Assembly (NCBI GenBank): GCA_951800365.1 | Contig: CATOJW010000019.1 | Coordinates: 1-63,128 of the forward strand | DNA length: 63,128 nucleotides | Reading direction: 5' to 3' | Source: an uncultured Lachnospiraceae bacterium | Lineage (GTDB): Bacteria; Bacillota; Clostridia; Lachnospirales; Lachnospiraceae | In this document: positions 1 to 56,315 of the stretch, piece by piece | How the letters are laid out: each line of letters opens with the position of its first letter | Numbering within the stretch: position 1 is the stretch's first letter | Program-made: the position numbers and the translations under genes | Notes under the pieces: model-generated | What the model was told of the DNA's origin: nothing | Databases searched by the model: none | Seen by the model: the letters and a program-made list of their open reading frames with translations, nothing else

Positions 1-160
1 GAGCGGTTTATGCATTATTTACAAAAACACAGTGAAAAGGTATCTTGTTTTTTTCAACATAGAAAGTTGAAATATATTCAAGACTACGGCTATTAAAACA
101 TTGACTTTTAATAGCCGTAGTAATATAATCAATCATAAGAAAAAATTTTTTTCGCTCGAA

Positions 161-319
161 ATACACAGCCAAAGCCCCAAGGAAGGTCTGCGCAGGGTCA
201 TCTCGGCACTTAGACGTTGTGTTGCTGTGTTTTAGCGCCTTAGTGTCCGCTATGAGGAAATAAGAAATGCTAAGCACAAGCGAGCCCGGAACAGACCTTC
301 CTTGGAGCTTTGGCGTCCC
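161..319 (+). repeat. Type C structured repeat, copy C1 (about 160 bp, terminal inverted arms, ends in TGGCGTCC)
   Basis: Near-identical to copies at 3597, 10871 and 50613; arms ccaaggaaggtctgc / gaacagaccttccttgg are self-complementary, with internal hairpins. Confidence 0.8.
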
Positions 320-369
320 TTCTTCAACAAAATCAATCACTAACAACAACTACAAAAAGGAGTTTCCCA

Positions 370-1304: not shown

Positions 1305-2281
1305 TATTCCCATCCAAGCCGTTTTTCCTCAAAATAGCGCAAAATCCAATAAGGATTTACACTCTGTTCCACATAATGTTCCGTCTGAATATAAATACCC
1401 AGATGCAGATGCACGGCAAAATTCCCTACCGTTCCCTCCACCTTACTATACCCGCTGTCCCCCATAAATCCAATCAATTCCCCTGCCTTTACACTATCTC
1501 CCTCTTTCCAATCCTTTGCGTATCGATAAAGATGCGCATAATAGAAATATCCTCCACTCGGACTGCGAATCCCAATTCGATACCCGCCCTTCTCTAACCA
1601 TCCAATCCGTTCCACTACTCCGTCCGTCATACTGACAATCGGAAAATACCCCCGTTCATTATTTCCCGCCATAATGTCACAGCCCTCATGCACATGAGAA
1701 GCATCTTTATAGACCCGTTCACTCCCCCAGCCATTACTATAATAAATATCCGCTGCCTTTCTATTACTGCTCTTTGGAACAGGAAAATACAAAATATCAG
1801 AAATCACTGCCCGATAAGCCTCTACCAGCTTCTGATAAGCCTCCTCCTGCCGTTCTAAATACCATTCCTTACTATCCTGAAAATACTCGATCTCCCGCAC
1901 AGAATCTGGCATAGCAGCAAACCGATCCAAACGAAATTCACTCACTCCCATCCATACAGCAAGCACCTCCTCCAAAGGAACATCATAGTTTTCCTGAAAT
2001 TCCTTTAAATCCAAAATTGCCTCCTCACTCATCCACATTTCCCGAAATCTCTCCGTTTCTTCTGCATAGGAAGGAAGTCTGCGCACCGTACCCTGAAAAA
2101 CTAATTGTTCTATTAAAACCACATTAAAAAAAGCAAAAAACAAACAAAGCCCTATCAGCCAATAAAAAGCCTTTCGATTCTTACGCTGCTTCTCTTTCTG
2201 TACAATCCGATATTCCAACCCCATCCCCCCTATCTTAAAATATTTATCCCCCAAACAATTCCTTACATCATATTCTCTCAA
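1301..2281 (-). CDS. M23 family metallopeptidase (LytM-like), membrane anchored
   Basis: N-terminal TM helix; C-terminal M23 motifs (GYFYYAHL, HLHLGIY). Confidence 0.7.
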   Translation of the reverse strand: MREYDVRNCLGDKYFKIGGMGLEYRIVQKEKQRKNRKAFYWLIGLCLFFAFFNVVLIEQLVFQGTVRRLPSYAEETERFREMWMSEEAILDLKEFQENYDVPLEEVLAVWMGVSEFRLDRFAAMPDSVREIEYFQDSKEWYLERQEEAYQKLVEAYRAVISDILYFPVPKSSNRKAADIYYSNGWGSERVYKDASHVHEGCDIMAGNNERGYFPIVSMTDGVVERIGWLEKGGYRIGIRSPSGGYFYYAHLYRYAKDWKEGDSVKAGELIGFMGDSGYSKVEGTVGNFAVHLHLGIYIQTEHYVEQSVNPYWILRYFEEKRLGWEY

Positions 2282-2339
2282 ACAAAAGAGTATACCAAAA
2301 ATGACATAGCCTAAGCTATGTCATTTCTAGAATCTTCTT

Positions 2340-3419
2340 CTATTTTTCGTCTTTGTCCTCTTCCTCTTCTCCAAAAATAAATCGATGCAGTTCCTCAATA
2401 TTTTTCTCAAAATCCACATCCAGCACCAGCATTGCATTATACCAGCTATCCGTATAACTTCCATCTACAGGAATCCGAAACTGTTCCATCTCAGCAGAAA
2501 GCACTCCAGCATCAAACACCTTGGTAGCAAGTGAAGTCATCTCCATCAAATCCAAATCCGTAGTCACATATGGCAGCACCGTTTCCATCAAGGAAAGTAA
2601 CTCCGGCAAACTCTGATCCTTAAATTTTTCATAAATCGCATTCAATACAACCCGCTGCTTCTGTGTCCGTCCAAAATCACTTGTCTTTAAACTAACTCGA
2701 TTTCTGCAATATCCAACTACCTGACAGCCATTTAACGTCTGTGTTGCCCCCGGTATTAAATTTCGATAAGCCGGATTTGAAATAAAATTCGATGTGTTCT
2801 GGAAATTCGCTTCATCCGCATCAATATAAAGCGAAATTCCTCCCAGCTTATCAATTACCTTCTCCAGCATATTATAATTAATCGCCACATAACCATCCAA
2901 ATCCAAATCAAAATTATGAGAAAATACATCATACACCAGTTGAATTCCTCCCTTTTGATAAGGTGTATTCAATTTATTATTCGAATACCCCGGAATCTGC
3001 ACCAGCATATCTCTCATAAAAGAAGTCAGCATAATTTTTTTATGATTCGTATCTAACGTCACTACAATCAAAGCATCCGAAAGATTCCCGGACTCCTGAT
3101 CCAATCCCAACAATAAAATATTCGTAATTCCCTCTTTCGAACGTCCATCCGTATCCTTATCTGCAACCGTTTCCAATGTAGCCTCTGGTAAATGCGTATA
3201 CTCTTCCACTGGTACAGTTTCAAAATAGTCCTCCTGCACAACATGATCCGAACCATCATCATAATTTGCCAGCGACATCAGATAATACACATAAAATATC
3301 ATTCCTACCAAACACAAAATAATCACCAGTGCCGTAATCATAAAAACCTTATACCACAACGGCTTCCTTGCAAAAGCTCCCTTTTGTCTTCCTACACTTC
3401 TTTCGTTTGTCTTAGCCAT
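2340..3419 (-). CDS. LCP family (LytR-CpsA-Psr) cell-envelope phosphotransferase
   Basis: N-terminal TM helix; ILLLGLDQ...SDALIVVTLD...KIMLTSFMRD LCP core. Confidence 0.75.
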   Translation of the reverse strand: MAKTNERSVGRQKGAFARKPLWYKVFMITALVIILCLVGMIFYVYYLMSLANYDDGSDHVVQEDYFETVPVEEYTHLPEATLETVADKDTDGRSKEGITNILLLGLDQESGNLSDALIVVTLDTNHKKIMLTSFMRDMLVQIPGYSNNKLNTPYQKGGIQLVYDVFSHNFDLDLDGYVAINYNMLEKVIDKLGGISLYIDADEANFQNTSNFISNPAYRNLIPGATQTLNGCQVVGYCRNRVSLKTSDFGRTQKQRVVLNAIYEKFKDQSLPELLSLMETVLPYVTTDLDLMEMTSLATKVFDAGVLSAEMEQFRIPVDGSYTDSWYNAMLVLDVDFEKNIEELHRFIFGEEEEDKDEK

Positions 3420-3596
3420 ACTGTCTCCTTTTTCTTCTCATCATAAATCCACTTCATTTTCTCTCAGCTATCACAACATCATAACTCCCGTCCTCTAAAT
3501 CAAAATACTCCAAATATAAAAAACTTTCCCTAATCTAACAACACACAATCAAAAATCTGCACAAATCAGGTGCTAAAAAATTATGTCAATCAGGTA

Positions 3597-3763
3597 CACA
3601 CAGCCGAAAGCCAAATGGGGTTCTATGCAGGGTCATCATTTCCCGTCGGCACTTAAGCACTGTGTTGCTGTATTTTAGTGCCTTATGTGTCCGCTATGAA
3701 AATAGGAAATGCTAAGCGCAAGCGAGCCCGGAGCAGACCCCCTTTTGGATTTCAGCGTTTCCC
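3597..3763 (+). repeat. Type C structured repeat, copy C2
   Basis: Same family as 161-319; ends 4 bp downstream of the pepD stop. Confidence 0.8.
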
Positions 3764-3766
3764 TTA

Positions 3767-5248
3767 TCATAATTTTTCCAGTACCTCCACCAAATACTCC
3801 CAAACCCGTGCCACAGAAGAAATACTCAACCGCTCCCGTGTAGTATGAATATCCTTTATATCTGGTCCAAAAGAAATCGCATCCAGCCTTGGGCATTTCT
3901 CTAAAAGAATCCCACACTCCAACCCAGCATGAATTGCCTGTACCAACGGTTCTTTTTTATACTTTTCTCTATAAATCTCTACTGCCGTTTCCCGCAGTTT
4001 TGAATCCGCCCGATACTCCCAAGCCGGATACTCTCCACGTGTCGTATATTCTCCCCCTAAAAACTCTGTCATCGAACGAAGCTGATTGCTCAGTGCCTCT
4101 TTTCGGCTTCCTACACTGCTTCGAACTGAAGCCGTAACCGTAAGTTTCTCCTGATCCAGCAATACAATCCCAAGATTTAAAGAAGTTTCCACCAATCCCG
4201 GAATGATTCTGCTCCAATTCTGCACCCCATTCGGCAGATTTGCCAGCAGATAAACAACATTCTTCTGACAAGACAAGTCAATCCTCTTTTCTATCCTACT
4301 ATCCCTTTTTCTCCACTCTATCCTAAGATTCGGATCAGAACATGCATACTCTGCCTGATAAACCGCCATCCGCTCCTGTAAAAGCTGCTCAAACTGCCCA
4401 GCATCTTCTGCCTTTACCAACAAAGAAAACGCACACTCCGCCGCAATCGCATTATCTTTTTCTCCGCCCTGCAGTTTACAAATTCCATAGGAAATCTTTT
4501 GCTCTAACTCCAAAAGCAAACGTCCCGTTAATTTTATCGCATTAGCACGCTCCTTGTCAATCTCAGAACCAGAATGTCCTCCTGTTAGTCCCGTCACCTT
4601 TATCTGATATAAAATCCCCTCTTCTTCCAGATAACGAACCGGAATAACCATATCCCCTCTTAAACCTCCTGCACAACTTGTTAAAAAAACACCCTCTTCT
4701 TCGGAATCCAAATTAATCAGATACTGTCCCTTTAGCATCGATAAATCAATGCCCGCTGCTCCTAAAAGTCCAATCTCTTCATCCACCGTCAGCACCACTT
4801 CCAAATGCGGATGAGAAAGGCTGTCATCTTCTAAAACTGCCAGTGCATAAGCAACCGCAATTCCGTCATCTCCTCCAAGACTTGTACCCTCCGCATAAAT
4901 TTCATCTCCATCCACTTTTAAACGCAGAGCATCCTTCGAAAAATCAATATCACAATCCTCATCCTTTACTGTTACCATATCCAAATGCCCCTGCAGAATA
5001 ATTCCATCATCCTGCTCTCTTCCTTTTGAAGCCTCTTTCATCAAAATAATATTATTCCAACTATCCTGTATATAAGAAAGTCCATGCTCTTTTGCAAATG
5101 CAACACAATAATCACTAATCGCTTTGGTATTTCCCGAACCATGCGGGATTTTTGAAATTTCTTCAAAATAATAAAATACTCGTTCCGGTTTTAATAATTC
5201 CAACAAAACAATACCTCCTTCAAAACATACTATATGTAATATTGACAC
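3767..5248 (-). CDS. pepD: Aminoacyl-histidine dipeptidase (PepD, M20C family)
   Basis: ERVFYYFEEISKIPHGSGN N-terminus, GHLDMV metal-binding region, about 490 aa. Confidence 0.75.
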   Translation of the reverse strand: MSILHIVCFEGGIVLLELLKPERVFYYFEEISKIPHGSGNTKAISDYCVAFAKEHGLSYIQDSWNNIILMKEASKGREQDDGIILQGHLDMVTVKDEDCDIDFSKDALRLKVDGDEIYAEGTSLGGDDGIAVAYALAVLEDDSLSHPHLEVVLTVDEEIGLLGAAGIDLSMLKGQYLINLDSEEEGVFLTSCAGGLRGDMVIPVRYLEEEGILYQIKVTGLTGGHSGSEIDKERANAIKLTGRLLLELEQKISYGICKLQGGEKDNAIAAECAFSLLVKAEDAGQFEQLLQERMAVYQAEYACSDPNLRIEWRKRDSRIEKRIDLSCQKNVVYLLANLPNGVQNWSRIIPGLVETSLNLGIVLLDQEKLTVTASVRSSVGSRKEALSNQLRSMTEFLGGEYTTRGEYPAWEYRADSKLRETAVEIYREKYKKEPLVQAIHAGLECGILLEKCPRLDAISFGPDIKDIHTTRERLSISSVARVWEYLVEVLEKL

Positions 5249-10870: not shown

Positions 10871-11033
10871 TTCTGCCAGAAATACACAGCCAAAATCCGA
10901 AGGAAGGTCTGCACAGGGTCATCATTTCCCGTCGGCACTTAGGCGCTGTGTTTTAGCGCCTTATGTGTCCGCTACGAGGAAATGCTAAGCGCAAGCGGAC
11001 CCGGAGCAGACCTTCCTTCGGATTTTAGCGTCC
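10871..11033 (+). repeat. Type C structured repeat, copy C4 (canonical)
   Basis: aaaatccgaaggaaggtctgc ... gcagaccttccttcggatttt arms; ggcgctgtgttttagcgcc hairpin; ends in TAGCGTCC. Confidence 0.85.
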
Positions 11034-11037
11034 TCTT

Positions 11038-11514
11038 CTATAGAATTACTTCCATTCCTATTTTTTGTGGCTTTAGACCACACGCTTCATAAAATTTTAT
11101 TGCCGATTCATTTAAACTCCATACATTTAAAGTTACATTATAACAGTAATTTTGTTTTGCAAATGCATAGACTGCCTGATATAGACTGCTGCCGATATGC
11201 TGTCCTCTTTGGTTTTCTTCTACACATAAATCATCAATATACAGTGTTTTAATATCAGTTAAAATATTATCGTTCTTATGCTGCTGAAAGATACAAAATG
11301 CATATCCTAAAATATTCTGATTCTCATCTGCTGCCACAAAAATTGGTCGCTGAGCATCACGGATAATCTCTTTTAACTGTTCATCTGTATATTTTTTTGC
11401 TCCATATCGGAATAAATCCGGTCTGCCTTTATGATGAACCAAACAAACCTGCATTAACAAACGATTAATTCCTTCCAAATCTCTTTCTTCTGCTCTTCTG
11501 ATTTCCATTATCAT
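11038..11514 (-). CDS. GNAT family N-acetyltransferase
   Basis: Acetyl-CoA binding motif region (QRGQHIGSSLY), 158 aa. Confidence 0.7.
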   Translation of the reverse strand: MIMEIRRAEERDLEGINRLLMQVCLVHHKGRPDLFRYGAKKYTDEQLKEIIRDAQRPIFVAADENQNILGYAFCIFQQHKNDNILTDIKTLYIDDLCVEENQRGQHIGSSLYQAVYAFAKQNYCYNVTLNVWSLNESAIKFYEACGLKPQKIGMEVIL

Positions 11515-12210: not shown

Positions 12211-12879
12211 TTAATCAAAACATTCTATTTTATCTGTATCCGCTTCCTTTTCATAAATTTGAATCATAGCATCAATTGAATCCACCACACTTACAATATG
12301 ATATTTTAACACAAACAAAGCATCTGCTTCATCTGGATACCTCTGCTTTATCTTTCGAAGAAGCGGAAGTACATACTGTCTGGTTTCTTCAATATATGCC
12401 TTTAACTTTTCCTTCGAAAAAGTTCCCGCCATACAAGAAACATTATGGCAGCGGTCAACCAATTTTGTAATAGCAGCCTCTCTGCTTTCCAAAATCCCAT
12501 TATAATAACGATTCTTGGCAATCTCTTTGGTTTCTCCTTCCATAACCCGAAATGTCATCAATGCTACACTGCGCCGCACAACATCATCCACCGGAAGTTC
12601 TTCTAAACTAATACCGCAATCCTCACAAACATCATGAAGCAGAATCGTTGCAATAATATTATCCTCCCGAATCCCGATACTTAATGCATTGCACGCCATA
12701 GTAAGCGGATGCACAATATAAGGTTCTCCTCCTTTCCGAGTCTGTCCCTCATGCTTGTCCCTTGCAAATGACAATGCCTTTAATGTCTGTGTCATCCCCG
12801 CCCCGGAAGCATAACCACGAATATAAGTATACATCTTCTCTGGATAAAACACGGTTCTTTCCATTTTTATCTCCTCCAT
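12211..12879 (-). CDS. HD domain phosphohydrolase
   Basis: H...HD motif (HPLTMACN...LLHDVCED). Confidence 0.65.
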
Positions 12880-13085
12880 TTTATTGTATCAACTGGTTCC
12901 TTCTCTACTCTTCCTGTTTAAAACTCTTCCCTTAACCCATACATAAGTCAAAGTTAAGACGAAAACTGCACGCTTCCCTCTCCATGCCAATACCAGTATA
13001 CACCTAAATAAGAAAAATGTCTTGTATTTATTTCTATAACTTTAATAAATTGGATAATGGAAGGAGAACACCAGAGGACGTCAGA

Positions 13086-13631
13086 GGACGCCAAATTCGA
13101 AAACAGTGAGCAGCCTGCTGTTCCAGTTTCCAAAAAGCAAGAAGTTCTAACTTTTTTCCAAAGTCACTGCAGGCTGCCCACTGTTTTCGAATCTGACTGT
13201 TTCTTGACTCCGAAACAAAAAAGAATGATGTCTAAACTTTACGGAAAACTTGCTCTGTAATAAAATATAACTTCTACTGTTATTCAGCCAACAGCGAGAG
13301 GCGGTTTGCTCCTGTCCTTTGCCAGCGACTTCGGAGAACGGTTAGAAAGTTTTGGGCTTCTGTTCGAAAACTTAGAATTTTTTGCATATCCTGCTTCCAT
13401 GCAGGGTATGCAAAAAAAGGGGCGTGTTTAGCCCGGAGAATAGAGAAGAGGCTGTTTTGTAGCTGGAAAAATTCTTCCTTACACCAATTATGTTTCGGCT
13501 GAAATGAGGGCGAATTGCGCCCCGGTTCGTCCGGTTGGATGAACCGAAATCAGAAGCCCTAGACTTTCTTACCGTTTGGAGCGGAGCAGGCAAAGGACAG
13601 GAGCAAACCGCCTCTGGCGTCCGGTGAAAGC
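13086..13631. repeat. Composite A/B structured repeat locus: core-less B arms (13086-13216), linker, then full A element (13290-13631)
   Basis: B arms ggacgccaaattcgaaaacagtgagcagcctgc / gcaggctgcccactgttttcgaatctg are joined directly with no core. The A element has 26-bp perfect terminal arms and a core with gcatatcctgc..gcagggtatgc and gggcgaattgcgccc hairpins. Confidence 0.85.
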
Positions 13632-13642
13632 ACCCCCTCATC

Positions 13643-14941
13643 CTATAAAATATCAATATATTCCCCTGCCAAAGCCTTGTTCATACTCCGCACAGCACAA
13701 AATTTTCCGCACATCGAACAAGTATCTTCCTGCTCCGGCTTTCGTTCTGCCCGAATCCTCTTTGCCGTTTCCGGATCAATCGCACATTCCCACTGTTTTT
13801 CCCAATCTAATTCCCTCCTTGCCTTTGCCATAGCATCGTCCTGTTCTCTAGCACCTCGAATCCCTTTTGCAATATCCGCCGCATGTGCTGCAATTCTCGA
13901 AGCAATCACTCCCTGTTTTACATCTTCTAAATTTGGCAGTGCCAAATGTTCTGCCGGTGTAACATAACAAAGAAAAGAAGCCCCGCAAGCCGCCGCCATC
14001 GCTCCGCCTATCGCCGCCGTAATATGATCATATCCCGGAGCAATATCCGTTACCAAAGGTCCTAATACATAAAAAGGCGCACCCATACAAATCGTCTGCT
14101 GAATTTTCATATTTGCAGCAATCTGATCCATTGGCATATGTCCCGGTCCTTCTACCATAACCTGTACATCCCTCTCCCACGCCCGTTTTGTCAATTCCCC
14201 CAACTTTACCAATTCTTCTATCTGGCAGACATCCGAAGCATCCGCAAGGCATCCCGGTCGGCAGGCATCACCAAGGGAAATCGTTACATCATATTCCCGG
14301 CAAATCTCTAAAATTTCATCATAATACTGATAAAACGGATTCTCCTCTCCTGTCATGCACATCCATGCAAAAACCAAAGAACCTCCCCGTGAAACCAAAT
14401 TCATCTTTCGTTTATGATTTCGAATCTGCTCTATTGTTTTTCTGGTAATTCCACAGTGCAAAGTGACAAAATCTACTCCGTTTTCCGCATGAAGCCGAAT
14501 CACATCTAAAAAATCTTTTGCACTTAATTCTGCCAAATCTCTTTGATAATGAATTACTGCATCATAAACCGGAACCGTACCTATCATAATCGGACACTCC
14601 GCCGTCAATTTTTTTCGAAACGGCTGTGTATCTCCATGAGAAGACAAATCCATAATCGAATGTGCCCCCATAGAAACCGCTTCCAATACTTTTTTCATCT
14701 CTGTATCATAATCTTTACAATCTCTTGACACACCAAGATTTACATTGATTTTTGTACGAAGCATCGAACCGATTCCCTCTGGTTCTAAACAACTATGATT
14801 TTTATTTGCACAAATCACCACTTTTCCCTCTGCTACAAGCGGCATTAACTCTTCTGCTGTCATTCTTTCCTTTTCGGCAACTATTTTCAACTGCTCCGTT
14901 ACGATTCCTTTCCGTGCTGCTTCCATTTGCGTTGTATACAT
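13643..14941 (-). CDS. thiC: Phosphomethylpyrimidine synthase
   Basis: Full-length ThiC with C-terminal [12 protein letters not shown] cluster motif. Confidence 0.95.
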
Positions 14942-37599: not shown

Positions 37600-38051
37600 C
37601 CGGACACCAAAGATAATTTGCTTTCACCGGACGCCAGAAGCGGGGGGCTCCTTTCCTCTGGCTGTTGATTAGCTCAAGGCAGAAAGATAAGATTTTTTTC
37701 GTTCCGGGGTCAGAAAACAGCCAGATTCGAAAACGGTGAACCGCCTGCAGTGACTTTGGAGAAAAGTTAGAAGTTCTTGACTTCTGCTCAAAAACCTAAG
37801 ATTTTTTTCACATACTGCTTTCATGCAGTGTGTGAAAAAAAAGGAGCGTGTTTAGCCCGCATATGTTTAAGGAAGCGATTGTTTTATGGCAGATAGAATC
37901 ATCTGAAACGCCAATTTCGTTCTGGCTGCCATGCGGGCGAATTGCGCTCCGGTCTGTCCGGTCAGAAAAATAGAACGGCAGAAGTCTAGAACTTCTTACT
38001 TTTTGGAAATCGGAACAGCAGGCGGTTCACCGTTTTCGAATCTAGCGTCCT
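37600..38051. repeat. Composite repeat: degenerate A arms, then linker, then full B element (arms ggtgaaccgcctg / caggcggttcacc)
   Basis: The B core hairpin variant cacatactgc..gcagtgtgtg has a compensatory change relative to cacatcctgc..gcagggtgtg. Confidence 0.85.
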
Positions 38052-38058
38052 CCTATTT

Positions 38059-43724: not shown

Positions 43725-44510
43725 TGATAGAGGACGTCAGATTCGAAAACGGTGGGCAGCCTGCTGTTCCGGTTTCCAAAAAGCAAGAAGTTCTAAGACT
43801 TCTGCCGTTTTATGCATCCAACCGGACAGACCGGGGCGCAATTCGCCCTCATTACAACCAAAACAAAACGGGTGTAAGGAAGGATTTTACCAACCATAAG
43901 ACGACTTCTTTCCTATCATCCGGGCTAAACACGCCCCTTTTTTTTCACACCCTGCATAGAAGCAGGATGTGAAAAAAATCTTAGGTTTTCGAGCAGAAGT
44001 CCAAGAACTTCTAACTTTTTTCCAAAGTCACTGCAGGCTGCCCACCATTTTCGAATCTGACTGTTTCTTGACTCCGAAACAAAAAAAGATACTCATCCAA
44101 GTTTTTCTTAAACCTATCCTGATGCAAAACTAACCAAAGTAATGAAATAGATTTCTGCCGCTATCCAACTAACAGCGAGAGGCGGTGGGCTCGTTTCCTT
44201 TGTCTGTGACTTCGGAGAACGGTTAGAAAGTCTTAGGCTTCTGCGGAAACACCTAGAATTTTTTGCATATCCTGCTTCCATGCAGGGTATGCAAAAAAAG
44301 GGGCGTGTTTAGCCCGGATAATAGGGAAGAGGATGTTTTATGGCTGATAAAATCTTTCCTTACACTCATTGTGTTTCGGCTTTAATGAGGGCGAATTGCG
44401 CCCCGGTTCGTCCGGTTAGATGCACATAGACAGAAGCCATAGACTTTCTTACCGTTTGGAGCGGAACAGACAAAGGAAACGAGCCCACCGCCTCTTGCGT
44501 CCGGTGACAT
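43725..44510. repeat. Composite repeat in reversed arrangement: B element (minus, 43725-44095), linker, A element (plus, 44180-44510)
   Basis: A arms gaggcggtgggctcgtttcctttgtct / agacaaaggaaacgagcccaccgcctc covary relative to other copies. The B arm contains a T·G-compatible pair. Confidence 0.9.
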
Positions 44511-44541
44511 CCAATAAATAAAATCCAGCAAAACCCCCTCC

Positions 44542-47207: not shown

Positions 47208-47263
47208 ACCTGTTTCCTATTCCAATTTAAAATAAACGCTGACACATCTGCTGTTATCCAATC

Positions 47264-47497
47264 AACAGCCAGAGGCGGTTTGCCCAATTCCTTTGACTGC
47301 AACTTCGGAGAATGGCTAGAAAGTCTTTGGCTTCTGTGGAGATACCTAGAATTTTTTGTACATCCTGCTTCCATGCAGGGTGTGCAAAAAAAGGGGCGTG
47401 TTTAATTGCGCCCCGGTTCGTCTGGTTGGATGTACGCAGATACAGAAGCTGTAGACTTTCTTACCATTCAGAGCAAAGCAAGCAGAGGGACGCCCAG
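47264..47497 (+). repeat. A element with internal deletion of the middle of the core
   Basis: Has the arms and the gtacatcctgcttccatgcagggtgtgc hairpin, but about 110 bp of core between gcgtgttta and attgcgcccc is missing. Confidence 0.8.
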
Positions 47498-49956: not shown

Positions 49957-50089
49957 CTAATCCATTCACCTCTCAATCCGATATAAAATAAAAACTTATT
50001 TTTTATTATAACATAAATCACCTTTATATTCTATACCTATCTTATTATACTTTAATTAAGCTTTTGGAGATAGGATGTTGCCGGAAAGG

Positions 50090-50465
50090 ATTGGATTTCA
50101 CCGGACGCAAGAGGCGGTTGAATAGCGGTAGAAATCATGTTTTATTACAGAGTAGATTTTTAGAAAAATTTAGATACAATTCTTTTTTTGTTTCGGCATC
50201 AAAAAACAGCCTGATTCGAAAACAATAGACAGCCTGCAGTGACTTTGAAAAAAAGTTAGAAGTTCTTGACTTCTGCTCGAAAGCCTAAGATTTTTTTCAC
50301 ATCCTGCTTCCATGCAGGGTGTGAAAAAAAAGGGTTGTGTTTAGCCCATGTAATAAAAAAGAGGTTGTCTTATGGTTGGTAAAATCTCCCCTTACACCAA
50401 CTTCGTTTCGACTGCAGTGAGGGCGAATTGCACCCCGGTCTGTCGGCTGTCTATTGTTTTCGAAT
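50090..50465. repeat. Composite repeat: A stub, then linker, then B element with shortened right arm
   Basis: B arms cgaaaacaatagacagcctg / ctgtctattgttttcg are a unique but complementary variant. Confidence 0.85.
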
Positions 50466-50612
50466 CTGGCGTCCTCTTAAATTCCAAAAGCCTAATCAAA
50501 GTTATTATTATTATAATTTTTCAAAAAATTTCCACTTTAAATTAAAAATTTAGTATTAAGTTTTTATTATAAATATTTACAACAAATTTCACCCCTGCTC
50601 TATTTTCCGGCA

Positions 50613-50782
50613 AAAATACACAGCCAAAATCCGAAGGAAGGTCTGCAAAGGGTCATCATTTCCCGTCAGCACTTAGGCACGGTCTTGCTGTGTTTTCGTG
50701 CCTTATGTGTCCGCTATGAAAATAGGAAATGCTAAGCCCAAACGGGCTCGGTGCAAACCTTCCTTCGGATTTTGGCGTCCCC
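50613..50782 (+). repeat. Type C structured repeat, copy C6
   Basis: Inner hairpin variant ggcacg..cgtgcc; ends 3 bp from the GerKA stop. Confidence 0.8.
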
Positions 50783-50784
50783 TA

Positions 50785-52212
50785 CTATTTATTTTCAGTT
50801 TTAGGCAAACTAATCCGTACAAATCGCCGCAAAAACTCCCGTCCATTAAAAGGGAAAAGAGGATAAAGATAACTTTTTCCAGAAAGTGTCCGATTCTGAC
50901 AAACGCAAAAAATCGTAAACAACACTCCAAAGATATACCCCCAAACATTAAATATCTGCGTAAGCAACAAAGTAATCAACCGCATAAATTTCAATGCAAA
51001 ACCCAATTCAAAGCTCGGCTGCGAATAATTTGCCAATACCACAAATGCCATATAAAGCATCGCTTCCGAATTAAACCATCCAGACTGCACAGCATAATCT
51101 CCCAGCACCAATCCGGCAATTACGCTTAAAGGAGTACTAAGCATATTCGGTGTATTTACTGCTGCAAGACGAAGCCCATCAATCGCAAATTCCAAAATAA
51201 TCAACTGCCAGATCAAAGGAACTTGTATCTCCTCAGCCGGAAAGATAAAAGCCAGCCATTCGGGAACCCACTCTGGATTCCTCATCAAAAGCAGCCACGT
51301 AGGCGTCAATATCCATGTCAACAGCGTAATCATAAACCGTGCCAATCGAAGATAAGTCCCAGTCACAGGAGGAAAATAATAATCATCCGCTTCTTCCAAA
51401 ATATCAAACACCGAACAAGGCAAAATCATAGCAGAAGGCGAATTATCCACCAAAATAGCAATTCCGCCCTCTAATATAGAAGCCGCTGCTGTATCCGGGC
51501 GTTCCGTATATTTATATTTCGGAAACGGATTCCACCACCCTCTTTTATAAAGACACTCTGCCAAACTCTCCTGATTCATTGTCAGTGCATCAATATCAAT
51601 CTCATTAATTCGCCGAATCAAGTCTTTTAAAAACTGCTGATCGACTCGATCTCTCATATAACAAACCGCAATATCCGTTTTTGAAGCACGCCCCACAGTA
51701 TACATCTCATTCGTAAGCTCTGTACTGCGAATCCGTCTGCGAATCAATGCCGTATTAAACACCACCGTTTCTACAAAACCGTCCCGAGACCCCCGCATTA
51801 CTCTGTCCTTTTCCGGTTCTTCTACTCCCCTTGCCGGATAATCCCTGCAATCAATTAAATAAGCCTCTGGATACCCTTCTATAAACATAGCTACCACACC
51901 AGAAAGCACATTTTTTACAATAGTATCCTCTTCTTTATTCATTTCCACTTGCAGATAAGACAAATATTTCTCAGAAAACTTATTTGCATCCTGCGGCATA
52001 TCCTCTTCCTTAATACTAACAAAAGAAGAAGTTATCTTCTGCATAATATCATCTTTCACAAAACCATTCAGAAAAAAATACGCCGCTTCCCGACCACCAA
52101 CCAAAAATTTCCAATACAATACATCAAAACTATCCTCTGTACGTAAAAGCTGCTTCATCCGCTCAAAGGTATTTTGAAAATCCGTTTGGTTTGTTCTATC
52201 CATTTTTCTCAC
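50785..52212 (-). CDS. Spore germination protein, GerA/GerKA family
   Basis: RVMRGSRDGFVETVVFNTALIRRRIR signature plus C-terminal multi-TM domain. Confidence 0.8.
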   Translation of the reverse strand: MRKMDRTNQTDFQNTFERMKQLLRTEDSFDVLYWKFLVGGREAAYFFLNGFVKDDIMQKITSSFVSIKEEDMPQDANKFSEKYLSYLQVEMNKEEDTIVKNVLSGVVAMFIEGYPEAYLIDCRDYPARGVEEPEKDRVMRGSRDGFVETVVFNTALIRRRIRSTELTNEMYTVGRASKTDIAVCYMRDRVDQQFLKDLIRRINEIDIDALTMNQESLAECLYKRGWWNPFPKYKYTERPDTAAASILEGGIAILVDNSPSAMILPCSVFDILEEADDYYFPPVTGTYLRLARFMITLLTWILTPTWLLLMRNPEWVPEWLAFIFPAEEIQVPLIWQLIILEFAIDGLRLAAVNTPNMLSTPLSVIAGLVLGDYAVQSGWFNSEAMLYMAFVVLANYSQPSFELGFALKFMRLITLLLTQIFNVWGYIFGVLFTIFCVCQNRTLSGKSYLYPLFPFNGREFLRRFVRISLPKTENK

Positions 52213-53070: not shown

Positions 53071-53274
53071 AATTAATTTTACCTCTCACCTTCCATTTTT
53101 TAAACTGCCACAAAAACAATTTTCCCGGATTCCCCTTCTATTTTTTGTTTAACAATTTCCCCGATCTCTCTTTCTTCCTCTTAATAGTTTATCACCAATT
53201 CCCGTTTTCCACAACCTTATTTTTACATTTTCCTTAATTAGGCTTTTAAAAATAGGTTGACGGAAAAGAAATTG

Positions 53275-54212
53275 CTTTCACCGGACGCAAGAGGCGGTTT
53301 GCTCCTTTTCTTTGCTTGCTCCGCTCTCCGAACGGTAAGAAAGTCTAAGGCTTCTGTATCTAAGCACATCCAACCGGACGAACCGGGGCGCAATTCGCCC
53401 TCACCACAGCCGAAACCCAACAAATGTAAGGAAAGATTTTATCAGCCATAAAACATTCCCTTCCCCATCATCCGGGCTAAACACGCCCCTTTTTTTGCAT
53501 ACCCTGCATGGAAGCAGGATATGCAAAAAATTCTAGGTGTTCCCACAGAAGCCAGACTTTCTAACCATTCTCCGAAGTCGCCGACAAAGAAAAGGAGCAA
53601 ACCGCCTCTCGCTGTTAATCGGATCACGGAAAAAATTATAAAAAATTATATTTTGTCACTTTATTCTATAAGTCAAAATTAATTTTATCTTCCAGTAAAA
53701 TAAGTACAAATTTTGCAGTAATCTTTTATTAGATGACAATAATTTTCCTGAATCATATAAAATAAAAGATTTCTAAATCCATATCCTTTCTCTGCTATAT
53801 TTAAAAATTTTTAAAACTCTTATGAAATACAAAAGTTTGGAATAAAATTCTTCTTTGTTTCGGAGTCAAGAAACAGCCAGATTCGAAAACCGTGAACCGC
53901 CTGCAGTGACTTTGGAGAAAAGTTAGAAGTTCTTGACTTCTGCTTAAAAACATAAGATTTTTTTCACATACTGCTTCCATGCAGTGTGTGAAAAAAAAGG
54001 AGCGTGTTTAGCTCGCATATGTTTTGGAAAGCGATTGTTTTGTGGCAGATAAAACCTTTTGGTATATCAATTTCGTTTTGGCTGCCATGCGAGCGAATTG
54101 CGCTCCGGTCTGTCCGGTTGGATGTAGCCTCAATGCAGAAGTCTTAGAACTTCTTACTTTTTGGAAACGTGGAACAGCAGGCGGTTCACGGTTTTCGAAT
54201 CTGGCGTCCCCC
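53275..54212. repeat. Composite repeat: A element (minus, 53275-53612), expanded 250-bp AT-rich linker, B element (plus, 53862-54212)
   Basis: A arms gctccttttctttg / caaagaaaaggagc are a variant. B arms aaaaccgtgaaccgcctg / caggcggttcacggtttt. Confidence 0.85.
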
Positions 54213-54225
54213 TCCCCCAAAAATT

Positions 54226-55737: not shown

Positions 55738-55829
55738 TCCTTCACCTTATATCCTTCTTTAAACACAAAAAGACAAAAAAACACTTATTAACCATCACCC
55801 TTTCCCACTTTTGAAGATAGGATAGTGGC

Positions 55830-56290
55830 TTTCACCGGATGCGAAAAGCGGTTTGCTCCTCGCTGTTGGTTAAATAGCAGTAGAAATAATATTTTATTAC
55901 AGAACAAATTTTCCGCAAAATTTGGATCCCATTCTTTTTTTATTCCGGTGTCAAAAAACAGCCAGATTCGAAAACGGTAGGCAGCCTGCAGTAACTTTGG
56001 AAAAAAGTTAGAAGTTCTTAGACTTCTGCTCGAAAACCTAAGATTTTTTTCACATCCTGCTTCCATGCAGGGTGTGAAAAAAAAGGGGTGTGTTTAGCCC
56101 GGATAATAGGGAAGAAGATGTTTTACGACTGGTAACATCCTTCTTTACACCAATTCCGCTTCGGCTGAAAGGAGGGCGAATTGCACCCCGGTCTGTCTGG
56201 TTGGGTGCACAAAGATACAGAAGTCTTAGAACTTCTTACTTTTTGGAAACCGGAACAGCAGGCTGCCTACCGTTTTCGAATCTGGCGTCC
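55830..56290. repeat. Composite repeat (A stub, linker, full B) inserted between the response-regulator and histidine-kinase genes
   Basis: B arms ggtaggcagcctg / caggctgcctacc; fills the 578-bp RR-HK spacer. Confidence 0.85.
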
Positions 56291-56315
56291 CCCTTCGAAC
56301 TTCTAGTATCCCACT

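Follow-up and report, generated by a model that had tools for sequence, protein, structure and literature searches.

Previously, Correia repeat-enclosed elements of Neisseria were shown to exist both at full length (~150 bp) and with an internal deletion (~105 bp; PMC2649163), and in the pneumococcal BOX repeat, boxA and boxC were found to pair across 0 to n intervening boxB modules (PMC3049150). Other relevant systems are the REP, REPIN and BIME repeats and the RAYT (Y1) transposases (PMC3116915, PMC3337134, PMC2817692), bacterial MITEs (miniature inverted-repeat transposable elements; definition in PMC11602168), and the IS200/IS605-derived PATEs (PMC3119063, PMC10055086). Furthermore, replication slippage at a hairpin flanked by direct repeats has been established experimentally (PMC4134008, summarising Canceill and Ehrlich; Viguera et al.). 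Here, we analyzed a 63,128-nucleotide stretch of bacterial chromosome with 39% G+C (contig CATOJW010000019.1 of an uncultured Lachnospiraceae bacterium; hereafter the window), in which a stable hairpin at 13083-13222 lies between thiC and a gene for an HD-domain protein. Our results indicate that this hairpin is very probably a decayed B module of a high-copy, non-coding palindromic repeat, shortened by a hairpin-stimulated, microhomology-mediated deletion.

The recurring unit of the repeat is a doublet of ~790 nt, in which a B module is joined through a linker to an A module (B-linker-A; Table 1). A and B proved to be two versions of one branched palindrome of ~360 nt. With the two in opposite orientation, homology extends over the core and, in each arm, over the inner ~30 nt; differences are confined to the arms' outer ~30-45 nt, the terminal TCTGrCGTCC being common to both. 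The hairpin copy shares with B modules the homology of its arms to those of full copies, and it is followed by the linker and by a full A module, as the original prediction had described; this A module is oppositely oriented. Its left-arm and right-arm blastn matches overlap in 13138-13150 and therefore no sequence lies between the arms, in agreement with the earlier description of B arms joined without a core. The same arms stand ~260 nt apart in 7 other copies of the window. Because the core (~205-220 nt between the arms of B modules; 218 nt missing here) is absent, the hairpin copy is a deletion derivative of the B module. Relative to the full copy at 43729-44086, the missing 218 nt run from after the TTCTAA at 43791-43796 through the TTCTAA at 44009-44014. 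With a slash marking the breakpoint, the full copy reads ...GCAAGAAGTTCTAA/GACTTCTGCC... in the left arm and ...GTCCAAGAACTTCTAA/CTTTTTTCC... in the right arm, and the hairpin copy reads ...GCAAGAAGTTCTAACTTTTTTCC... across the junction. Full copies have TTCTAA on either edge of the segment that is missing here, and the hairpin copy has it once; after the 10-mers, the hairpin copy reads GCCAAATTCGAAAACAGTGAGCAGCCTGCTGTTCCAGTTTCCAAAAAGCAAGAAGTTCTAACTTTTTTCCAAAGTCACTGCAGGCTGCCCACTGTTTTCGAATCTGACTGTTTCTTGACTCCGAAACAAAAAAG within 13083-13222 on the + strand.

The stability of the arm-only fold far exceeds chance. This stretch folds with -56.6 kcal/mol (z -6.09), and 0 of 200 shuffled sequences were equally stable; the full B and A modules gave -150.6 (z -11.7) and -185.9 (z -14.5), respectively. 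A perfect hairpin of ~130 nt had been predicted, and the strong fold was confirmed, but the perfection and the length were not: the main hairpin covers ~104 nt (~13092-13195) with several mismatches and bulges among its 40 pairs, 13199-13216 is a separate hairpin of 5 bp, and the minimum-energy fold of 13086-13216 has 45 pairs and 41 unpaired bases. The outer 30-nt arms of the hairpin copy are 90% complementary, and the outer 33-nt arms of the adjacent A module (13294-13326 and 13586-13618) are 94% complementary. The remaining arms still pair as a shorter hairpin because the deleted segment was centred on the dyad. Thus, the arms do fold on their own, as had been noted, but the step from this to an independent structural module is not supported, since the same is trivially true of any palindrome that loses its tip. 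Moreover, homology between A and B is continuous for ~30 nt outward beyond the junction on both sides, and therefore the junction does not coincide with any boundary between arm and core modules.

We next consider the repeat family as a whole, for which all 126 B left arms in the window and in the Lachnospiraceae metagenome-assembled genome (MAG) CBFFYP01 were classified. A right arm was present 254-271 nt away in 72 of these, 3 further copies were full but degenerate, 44 ran off the end of a block or contig, and 7 were internally deleted; among the 82 evaluable copies, 75 were therefore of full length. The 7 internally deleted copies have 7 different junctions (Table 1). Identical breakpoints in independent copies, as for a site-specifically excised cassette, were not seen among them, and neither the window nor ~750 kb of the MAG yielded a second copy with the junction AAGAAGTTCTAACTTTTTTCC at another locus. 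These ragged, microhomology-rich junctions strongly support the earlier suggestion of a deletion derivative and speak against its companion, that the core is cargo released by site-specific excision. Random deletion had been expected to appear as a unique occurrence with ragged breakpoints; the breakpoints are indeed ragged, but the occurrence is not unique, as deletions are common and each is different.

The sole recurrent junction in the family is an A-module one, CAACC/GCCTCT at a 4-nt AACC repeat, present in the window (50119-50096) and in L120 of the MAG. The A-module remnant at 55897-55828 has the junction CAGCGAG/GAGCAAACCGC (CAGCGAG/GAGCAAACC), and the A modules of L099 and L086 have yet other junctions. 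In L137 (3150-3440), the 337-nt B module that in the window (55930-56290) separates a response-regulator gene from its histidine-kinase gene is exactly absent as a whole, with the linker and A remnant kept. The empty junction reads ...GGGGGACGCCAGA/ATAAAAAAAG... (...GACGCCAGA/ATAAAAAAAG...), and in filled strains the module is bounded by the similar 9-mers GACGCCAGA and GACACCGGA; the edges of the absence, ..CCAGA/ and ..CCGGA/, fit a fixed 4-5-nt target of IS200/IS605-type (PATE) insertion without duplication, and also slippage. On the same contig of the same strain (L202; 5270-5930), the already truncated B copy corresponding to 50179-50477 is short by a further 202 nt, the junction lying at an ATT repeat. 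Internal deletions are centred on the dyad, although some are asymmetric (window 50455 region; L202).

These deletions also set the family apart from its closest described counterparts. Correia elements are likewise intergenic and high-copy, with inverted-repeat ends and some copies that keep the ends without the internal segment. However, their short form is a recurrent size class, whereas the deleted B-linker-A copies each have their own breakpoints; in addition, Correia elements are ~5 times smaller and insert at TA, whereas no target duplication is demonstrable for the B-linker-A family. BOX repeats are similarly composite, their paired outer parts fold without the middle, and they vary in size between strains by slippage-type events. 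Nevertheless, boxB is a discrete tandem module with fixed edges, whereas the part missing here is the tip of a continuous stem without fixed edges.

Microhomology was scored at 11 junctions, namely those of the 7 B tip deletions, the whole-B loss in L137, 2 A-module junctions and a deletion in L199 and L200 described below. The values were 6, 4, 6, 0, 2, 4, 4, 2, 2, 4 and 5 nt (mean 3.5), whereas random deletions simulated in five full B copies averaged 0.71 nt, with P(>=4 nt) = 0.027; 7 of the 11 junctions had at least 4 nt (binomial p~3e-9). We propose that, in this lineage, the composite entered the spacer between thiC and the HD-domain gene, and that 218 nt at the tip of its B hairpin (core and inner stem) would then have been lost in one step between the two TTCTAA repeats. 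Replication slippage is the most likely mechanism: on reaching the base of a hairpin folded in the template, the polymerase would stall; the nascent end would leave the first TTCTAA and re-anneal to the second, and synthesis would resume. The deleted state would have become fixed in most sampled strains, followed in some by a further 63-nt erosion at CTGTT, and the remnant probably serves no function. As in the established slippage model, direct repeats stand at the foot of a stem-loop and one repeat is lost together with the stem-loop (PMC4134008); however, the repeats in the test plasmid were 27 bp, versus 2-6 nt here, and the event here is reconstructed from natural variants.

Several points weigh against this reading. 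The TTCTAA direct repeat arises in part from a stem segment that is itself locally palindromic (AGAAsTTCT). Microhomology was scored by eye against the family consensus rather than against the true progenitor of each copy, and the L089 junction has none at all. A full B module at the thiC/HD site was seen in no genome found, so that the undeleted ancestor is itself postulated. Finally, slippage is inseparable, by sequence alone, from hairpin cleavage followed by microhomology-mediated end joining.

Exact-protein look-ups with the flanking genes gave further, independently assembled genomes of the species, in which the thiC/HD site could be compared. Among their contigs, all those extending to the site (L001, L003-L006, L008, L009) carry the arm-only junction, with an identity of 98-100%; they come from different samples and different assemblers, and those of L003-L006, L008 and L009 run through it into unique flanks. 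The arm-only state is common in the species. A survey of orthologous positions for arm-only and core-containing versions had been suggested, and it yielded the former in independent assemblies but not the latter. In L199 (2068-2236) and L200 (1827-2007), which are orthologous to window 13040-13290, the hairpin is shorter by a further 63 nt. The junction there reads ...GCAGCCTGCTGTT/TTCGAATCTGG... (GCCTGCTGTT/TTCGAATC), and in the window allele CTGTT stands on both sides. The tip is therefore eroding progressively at the thiC/HD site. Gene callers annotated a spurious open reading frame (ORF) of 67 aa over the hairpin in public assemblies (13057-13260, + strand), which is 46 aa in the shortened allele. 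A protein search with this ORF was useful for finding allelic variants, and the L199/L200 allele was reached via the 46-aa variant P0122.

Two sister lineages were recognised by homologues of the HD-domain protein with 89% identity. In one of them (L195-L197), the thiC-HD spacer is 119 nt and lacks the repeat; because of this empty spacer, we infer that the composite was inserted at the site. In the other (L187-L190, about 2150-3000), the spacer holds a pair of a different subfamily, with other outer arms, a shorter core without the central ~90 nt, and a 62-nt tandem repeat in the linker (three copies in L187, two in L190). This pair lies in the opposite orientation and is therefore an independent insertion. 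A comparable presence/absence difference was observed between the PBP and NUDIX genes, where the spacer is 590 nt with an element in the window (37600-38054) and an empty 97-110 nt in relatives with an identical NUDIX protein (L210-L219, about 2890-3001). The outermost motif of the PBP-NUDIX element resembles the empty-site sequence (CAAAAGTCTAAT versus GAAAATTTCTAT), a likeness that may reflect a preferred target.

The neighbourhood of the hairpin also varied relative to window 13200-13650. L003 has a serine recombinase gene beyond the hairpin/A module, L004 has a chimeric module with an A core and B arms, and L006 has another linker and the second repeat family described below, which suggests that recombination between repeat copies rearranges the chromosome. 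Public contigs of the species often end inside repeats.

Two alternative explanations treat the core as a separate entity. According to one, it is a separable cargo removed by a site-specific recombinase or transposase, which leaves the arms as an empty carrier. The short direct repeat TTCTAA at the edges of the missing segment, the L137 strain without the whole B module between GACGCCAGA and GACACCGGA, and the IS200-type Y1 transposase genes in the related MAG are consistent with such an excision, but the 7 deleted copies with their 7 junctions, the failure to find the hairpin-copy junction again in the window and ~750 kb of the MAG, and the passage of A/B homology across that junction without a module edge are not. 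Furthermore, isolated cores were not seen, and the same locus carries a second, differently placed deletion, making this explanation very improbable. According to the other, the arm-only hairpin is ancestral and the core is a smaller element inserted into it, with TTCTAA as the target-site duplication. A 6-bp direct repeat does flank the core, which starts and ends with the inverted 9-mers GACTTCTGC and GCAGAAGTC. However, these 9-mers are simply part of a long stem that is continuous from arms to core in the A, B and L187 subfamilies, the A module has no TTCTAA repeat at the equivalent place, and the core is present in 75 of the 82 evaluable copies. As other arm-only copies also have different junctions, unlike uninterrupted targets, we consider an ancestral arm-only hairpin scarcely credible.

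The remaining alternatives concern how the tip was lost, what the remnant does and whether it exists. Loss of the tip through cleavage of an extruded or folded hairpin, e.g. by an SbcCD-type nuclease, with microhomology-mediated end joining, is unlikely but deserves serious consideration. Inverted repeats are known to provoke breaks (PMC3519483), and both the centring of the deletions on the dyad and the junction microhomology agree with it; the microhomology fits slippage alike, the asymmetric deletions (window 50455 region; L202) fit either route, and the sequence holds nothing to separate the two. It is improbable that the shortened hairpin persists because it acts on the downstream HD-domain gene as a regulatory structure (RNA or DNA), or serves thiC as a terminator or 3' stabiliser. 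Although the hairpin is stable and 98-100% identical in most sampled strains, and the family occurs in transcribed spacers, even within the response-regulator/histidine-kinase operon, it is no more similar between strains than the flanks are, and two samples have the further 63-nt deletion. Searches of 12800-13700 found 0 intrinsic terminator sites (GC-rich stem plus T run) on either strand, and no Rfam 15 family matched the hairpin, A or B at gathering or permissive thresholds. Nor did the family as a whole carry a one-strand RNA signature, which was considered and rejected: mismatches in the main stem of 72 B copies were symmetric (28 G:U versus 39 A:C, with no excess of G:U), and the elements showed no bias in orientation relative to neighbouring genes. 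Therefore, the palindrome seems to be preserved in the DNA itself, or on both strands, rather than as a one-strand RNA. Finally, faulty assembly (a collapsed repeat or a fold-back chimera, for example) might be suspected because contigs of the species often break inside these repeats; since independent assemblies that run into unique flanks (L003, L004, L005, L006, L008, L009) have the identical junction, the hairpin is not such an artefact, and the probability we leave to this explanation is negligible. Hairpin-stimulated loss of the tip between short repeats thus accounts best for the copy at 13083-13222.

Table 1. Features of the hairpin locus, full and partial copies of the B-linker-A repeat, and internally deleted B copies. 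Positions are those of the window unless a locus is named.
Feature	Position	Strand	Comment
Tandem 10-mers x2, CAGAGGACGT CAGAGGACGC	13072-13091	+	Outer left end of B module
B left arm	13083-13150	+	92.6% identity to 43729-43796, E 6e-24 (blastn vs window)
B right arm	13138-13222	+	96.5% identity to 44002-44086, E 7e-36; includes small terminal hairpin 13199-13216
Deletion junction TTCTAA	13145-13150	+	Single retained copy of 6-nt direct repeat
Main imperfect hairpin	13092-13195		Formed by both arms; 40 pairs
Linker	13217-13289	+	Joins B and A modules; conserved in composite repeat
Full A module	13290-13631	+	Long branched hairpin, intact core; terminal TCTGGCGTCC at 13613-13622, then GGTGAAAGC
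HD-domain protein gene (PF13328)	12211-12879	-	Flanking; start at 12864 in other assemblies
thiC (PF01964)	13643-14941	-	Flanking; stop ~12 nt from A module end
Reference full composite	43729-44514	+	Undeleted comparison; B 43729-44086, linker, A 44153-44514
Second full composite, inverted	33484-34257	-	
B with core and A remnant	55828-56290	-	B 56290-55930, A remnant 55897-55828; B wholly absent in L137
B copy with asymmetric left-arm deletion and A remnant	50096-50477	-	A remnant CAACC/GCCTCT; further 202-nt loss in L202
Other B copies of the window	34257-33897, 38052-37695, 43729-44086, 50477-50179, 54209-53847, 56290-55930, 60274-59945		
Family sites	13072-13631, 33484-34257, 37600-38054, 43729-44514, 47244-47488, 50074-50482, 53254-54220, 55808-56301, 59268-60314, 62786-63127		
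Deleted B copy	13083-13222		43 nt between arm motifs; junction TTCTAA
Deleted B copy	L036		51 nt between arm motifs; junction AAGA
Deleted B copy	L080		52 nt between arm motifs; junction ACTTCT
Deleted B copy	L120		93 nt between arm motifs; junction about CTT
Deleted B copy	L089		101 nt between arm motifs; no junction repeat
Deleted B copy	L057		17 nt between arm motifs; junction AAAG
Deleted B copy	L097		Deeper deletion; junction TTTC

The family occupies at least 10 intergenic sites in the window (about 6 kb, or ~a tenth of its length). Elements often begin 20-30 nt past a stop codon, and one lies between the response-regulator gene and its histidine-kinase gene. A scan of a genome collection with a B-left-arm pattern returned at least 115 8-kb blocks, and the matches listed all came from one MAG (CBFFYP01, an uncultured Lachnospiraceae bacterium), which has no bearing on taxonomic breadth. 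This MAG and the window have only the repeats in common, at 76-90% identity, with no DNA similarity at the level of genes. In the two together, 39 full doublets have the ends GAGGACGCCAGA...TCTGGCGTCCGG. The composite terminates in the inverted repeats GGACGCCAGA ... TCTGGCGTCC, of the length expected of a MITE (at least 10-15 bp), and most copies have a weaker outer inverted pair, CTTTTGGAG and CTCCAAAAG. The 10-mer CAGAGGACGC (GGACGCCAGA in another register) occurs in about 1-4 tandem copies at the outer B end, its number varying between the left ends of composites (e.g. L021, L064, L111, L086), and the same motif, inverted, ends the A module. The 72 full B copies have a mean identity of 87%; their consensus stems are 97% Watson-Crick, with double compensatory changes at 11 pairs.

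Matches to Rfam in the window were one tmRNA, two tRNAs and one TPP riboswitch, and the sub-threshold matches in the region were microRNA precursors, i.e., generic hairpin matches. The composite had no blastn match in plasmid and phage collections, and a scan of viral contigs for the B left arm returned 0 matches. Scanning JGI metagenomes for the same junction with consensus arms also gave 0 matches, although the zero is uninformative because that collection appears to lack the family; a gapped arm-only pattern gave 43 matches there, none of them B-like. Literature searches found no description of a Lachnospiraceae repeat of the B-linker-A kind, and the family is apparently undescribed.

Mobilisation of the repeat was approached by comparison with MITEs, PATEs and REP-type repeats. 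Like MITEs and PATEs, the elements are non-coding and multi-copy, fall within 50-800 bp, have inverted ends, and are present or absent between related genomes; no conserved or multi-copy ORF was associated with them in ~750 kb of the MAG. However, the whole B-linker-A unit is palindromic rather than only its termini, no autonomous insertion sequence with the same ends was found in ~750 kb of the MAG, and no target-site duplication of 2-10 bp was evident, the filled and empty PBP-NUDIX and thiC-HD sites not being alignable to the base. Searching the MAG blocks by tblastn with an IS608 TnpA sequence, the outcome of which is a lead only, gave three Y1-transposase matches, two of which were confirmed as Y1_Tnp (PF01797; E 2e-34 and 1e-37). 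At L100 (5982-6383), ~110 nt past an A end and oriented alike, lies an IS200/IS605-like Y1 gene with a tnpB remnant, and at L110 (1704-1766), a tnpA fragment lies beyond an A-module end, again in the same orientation (offsets of 70-110 nt for L100 and L110); the third Y1 gene, a divergent one (L044, 1106-1505), has no element next to it. The IS200-like copies of L100 and L110 were considered as parents of the repeat and rejected: their ends are unrelated to each other, and we read them as insertions next to repeats.

The family resembles REP, REPIN and BIME repeats in its hundreds of intergenic hairpin-forming copies, in the frequency of decayed partial copies, and in a conserved short motif at the foot of the stem (GGACGCCAGA and TCTGGCGTCC in B-linker-A). 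B-linker-A further resembles a REPIN or BIME doublet, with two related palindromic units in opposite orientation joined by a conserved linker. In contrast, REP and REPIN units are tens of nucleotides long (REP ~20-40, REPIN ~100; unit ~35), whereas B-linker-A modules are ~360 nt with a branched core; and unlike REPINs with their RAYT, no flanked single-copy RAYT was identified, the Y1 genes being IS200-like and beside elements in 2 of 3 cases. We give little credence to the hypothesis of a giant REPIN/BIME-like class in gut Lachnospiraceae, in which folded single strands would be moved by a Y1 transposase (IS200/RAYT-type) via the stem-foot motif GGACGCCAGA, the L137 loss (GACGCCAGA and GACACCGGA) would be enzymatic, and arm-only hairpins such as 13092-13195 would be minimal substrates. 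A dedicated mobilising enzyme, if found, would extend the REPIN/BIME idea to units tenfold larger.

The hairpin itself is an ordinary decay product, one of many, and points to no new mechanism. The repeat family breaks metagenome assemblies, attracts spurious ORF calls, and, through deletions and rearrangements, differs from strain to strain; as such, it could provide a natural archive of deletions driven by hairpins in gut Firmicutes, and could also be used to mark strains.

A second, shorter family of interspersed repeats was also observed in the window (150-326, 3585-3768, 10871-11041, 50605-50788, 30289-30353 and 27739-27821). Its copies end in ...GGCGTCCyC, the terminal motif also seen in the A/B family; a common system of mobilisation or targeting may lie behind this. 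Throughout 27000-63128 (36 kb), all long ORFs are on the minus strand. Finally, a tandem array of six 66-nt copies at 20296-20689, considered as a CRISPR because of its spacing, was rejected as such: the repeats lie within an ORF of 1086 aa (20177-23437, minus strand) and therefore represent 22-residue protein repeats.

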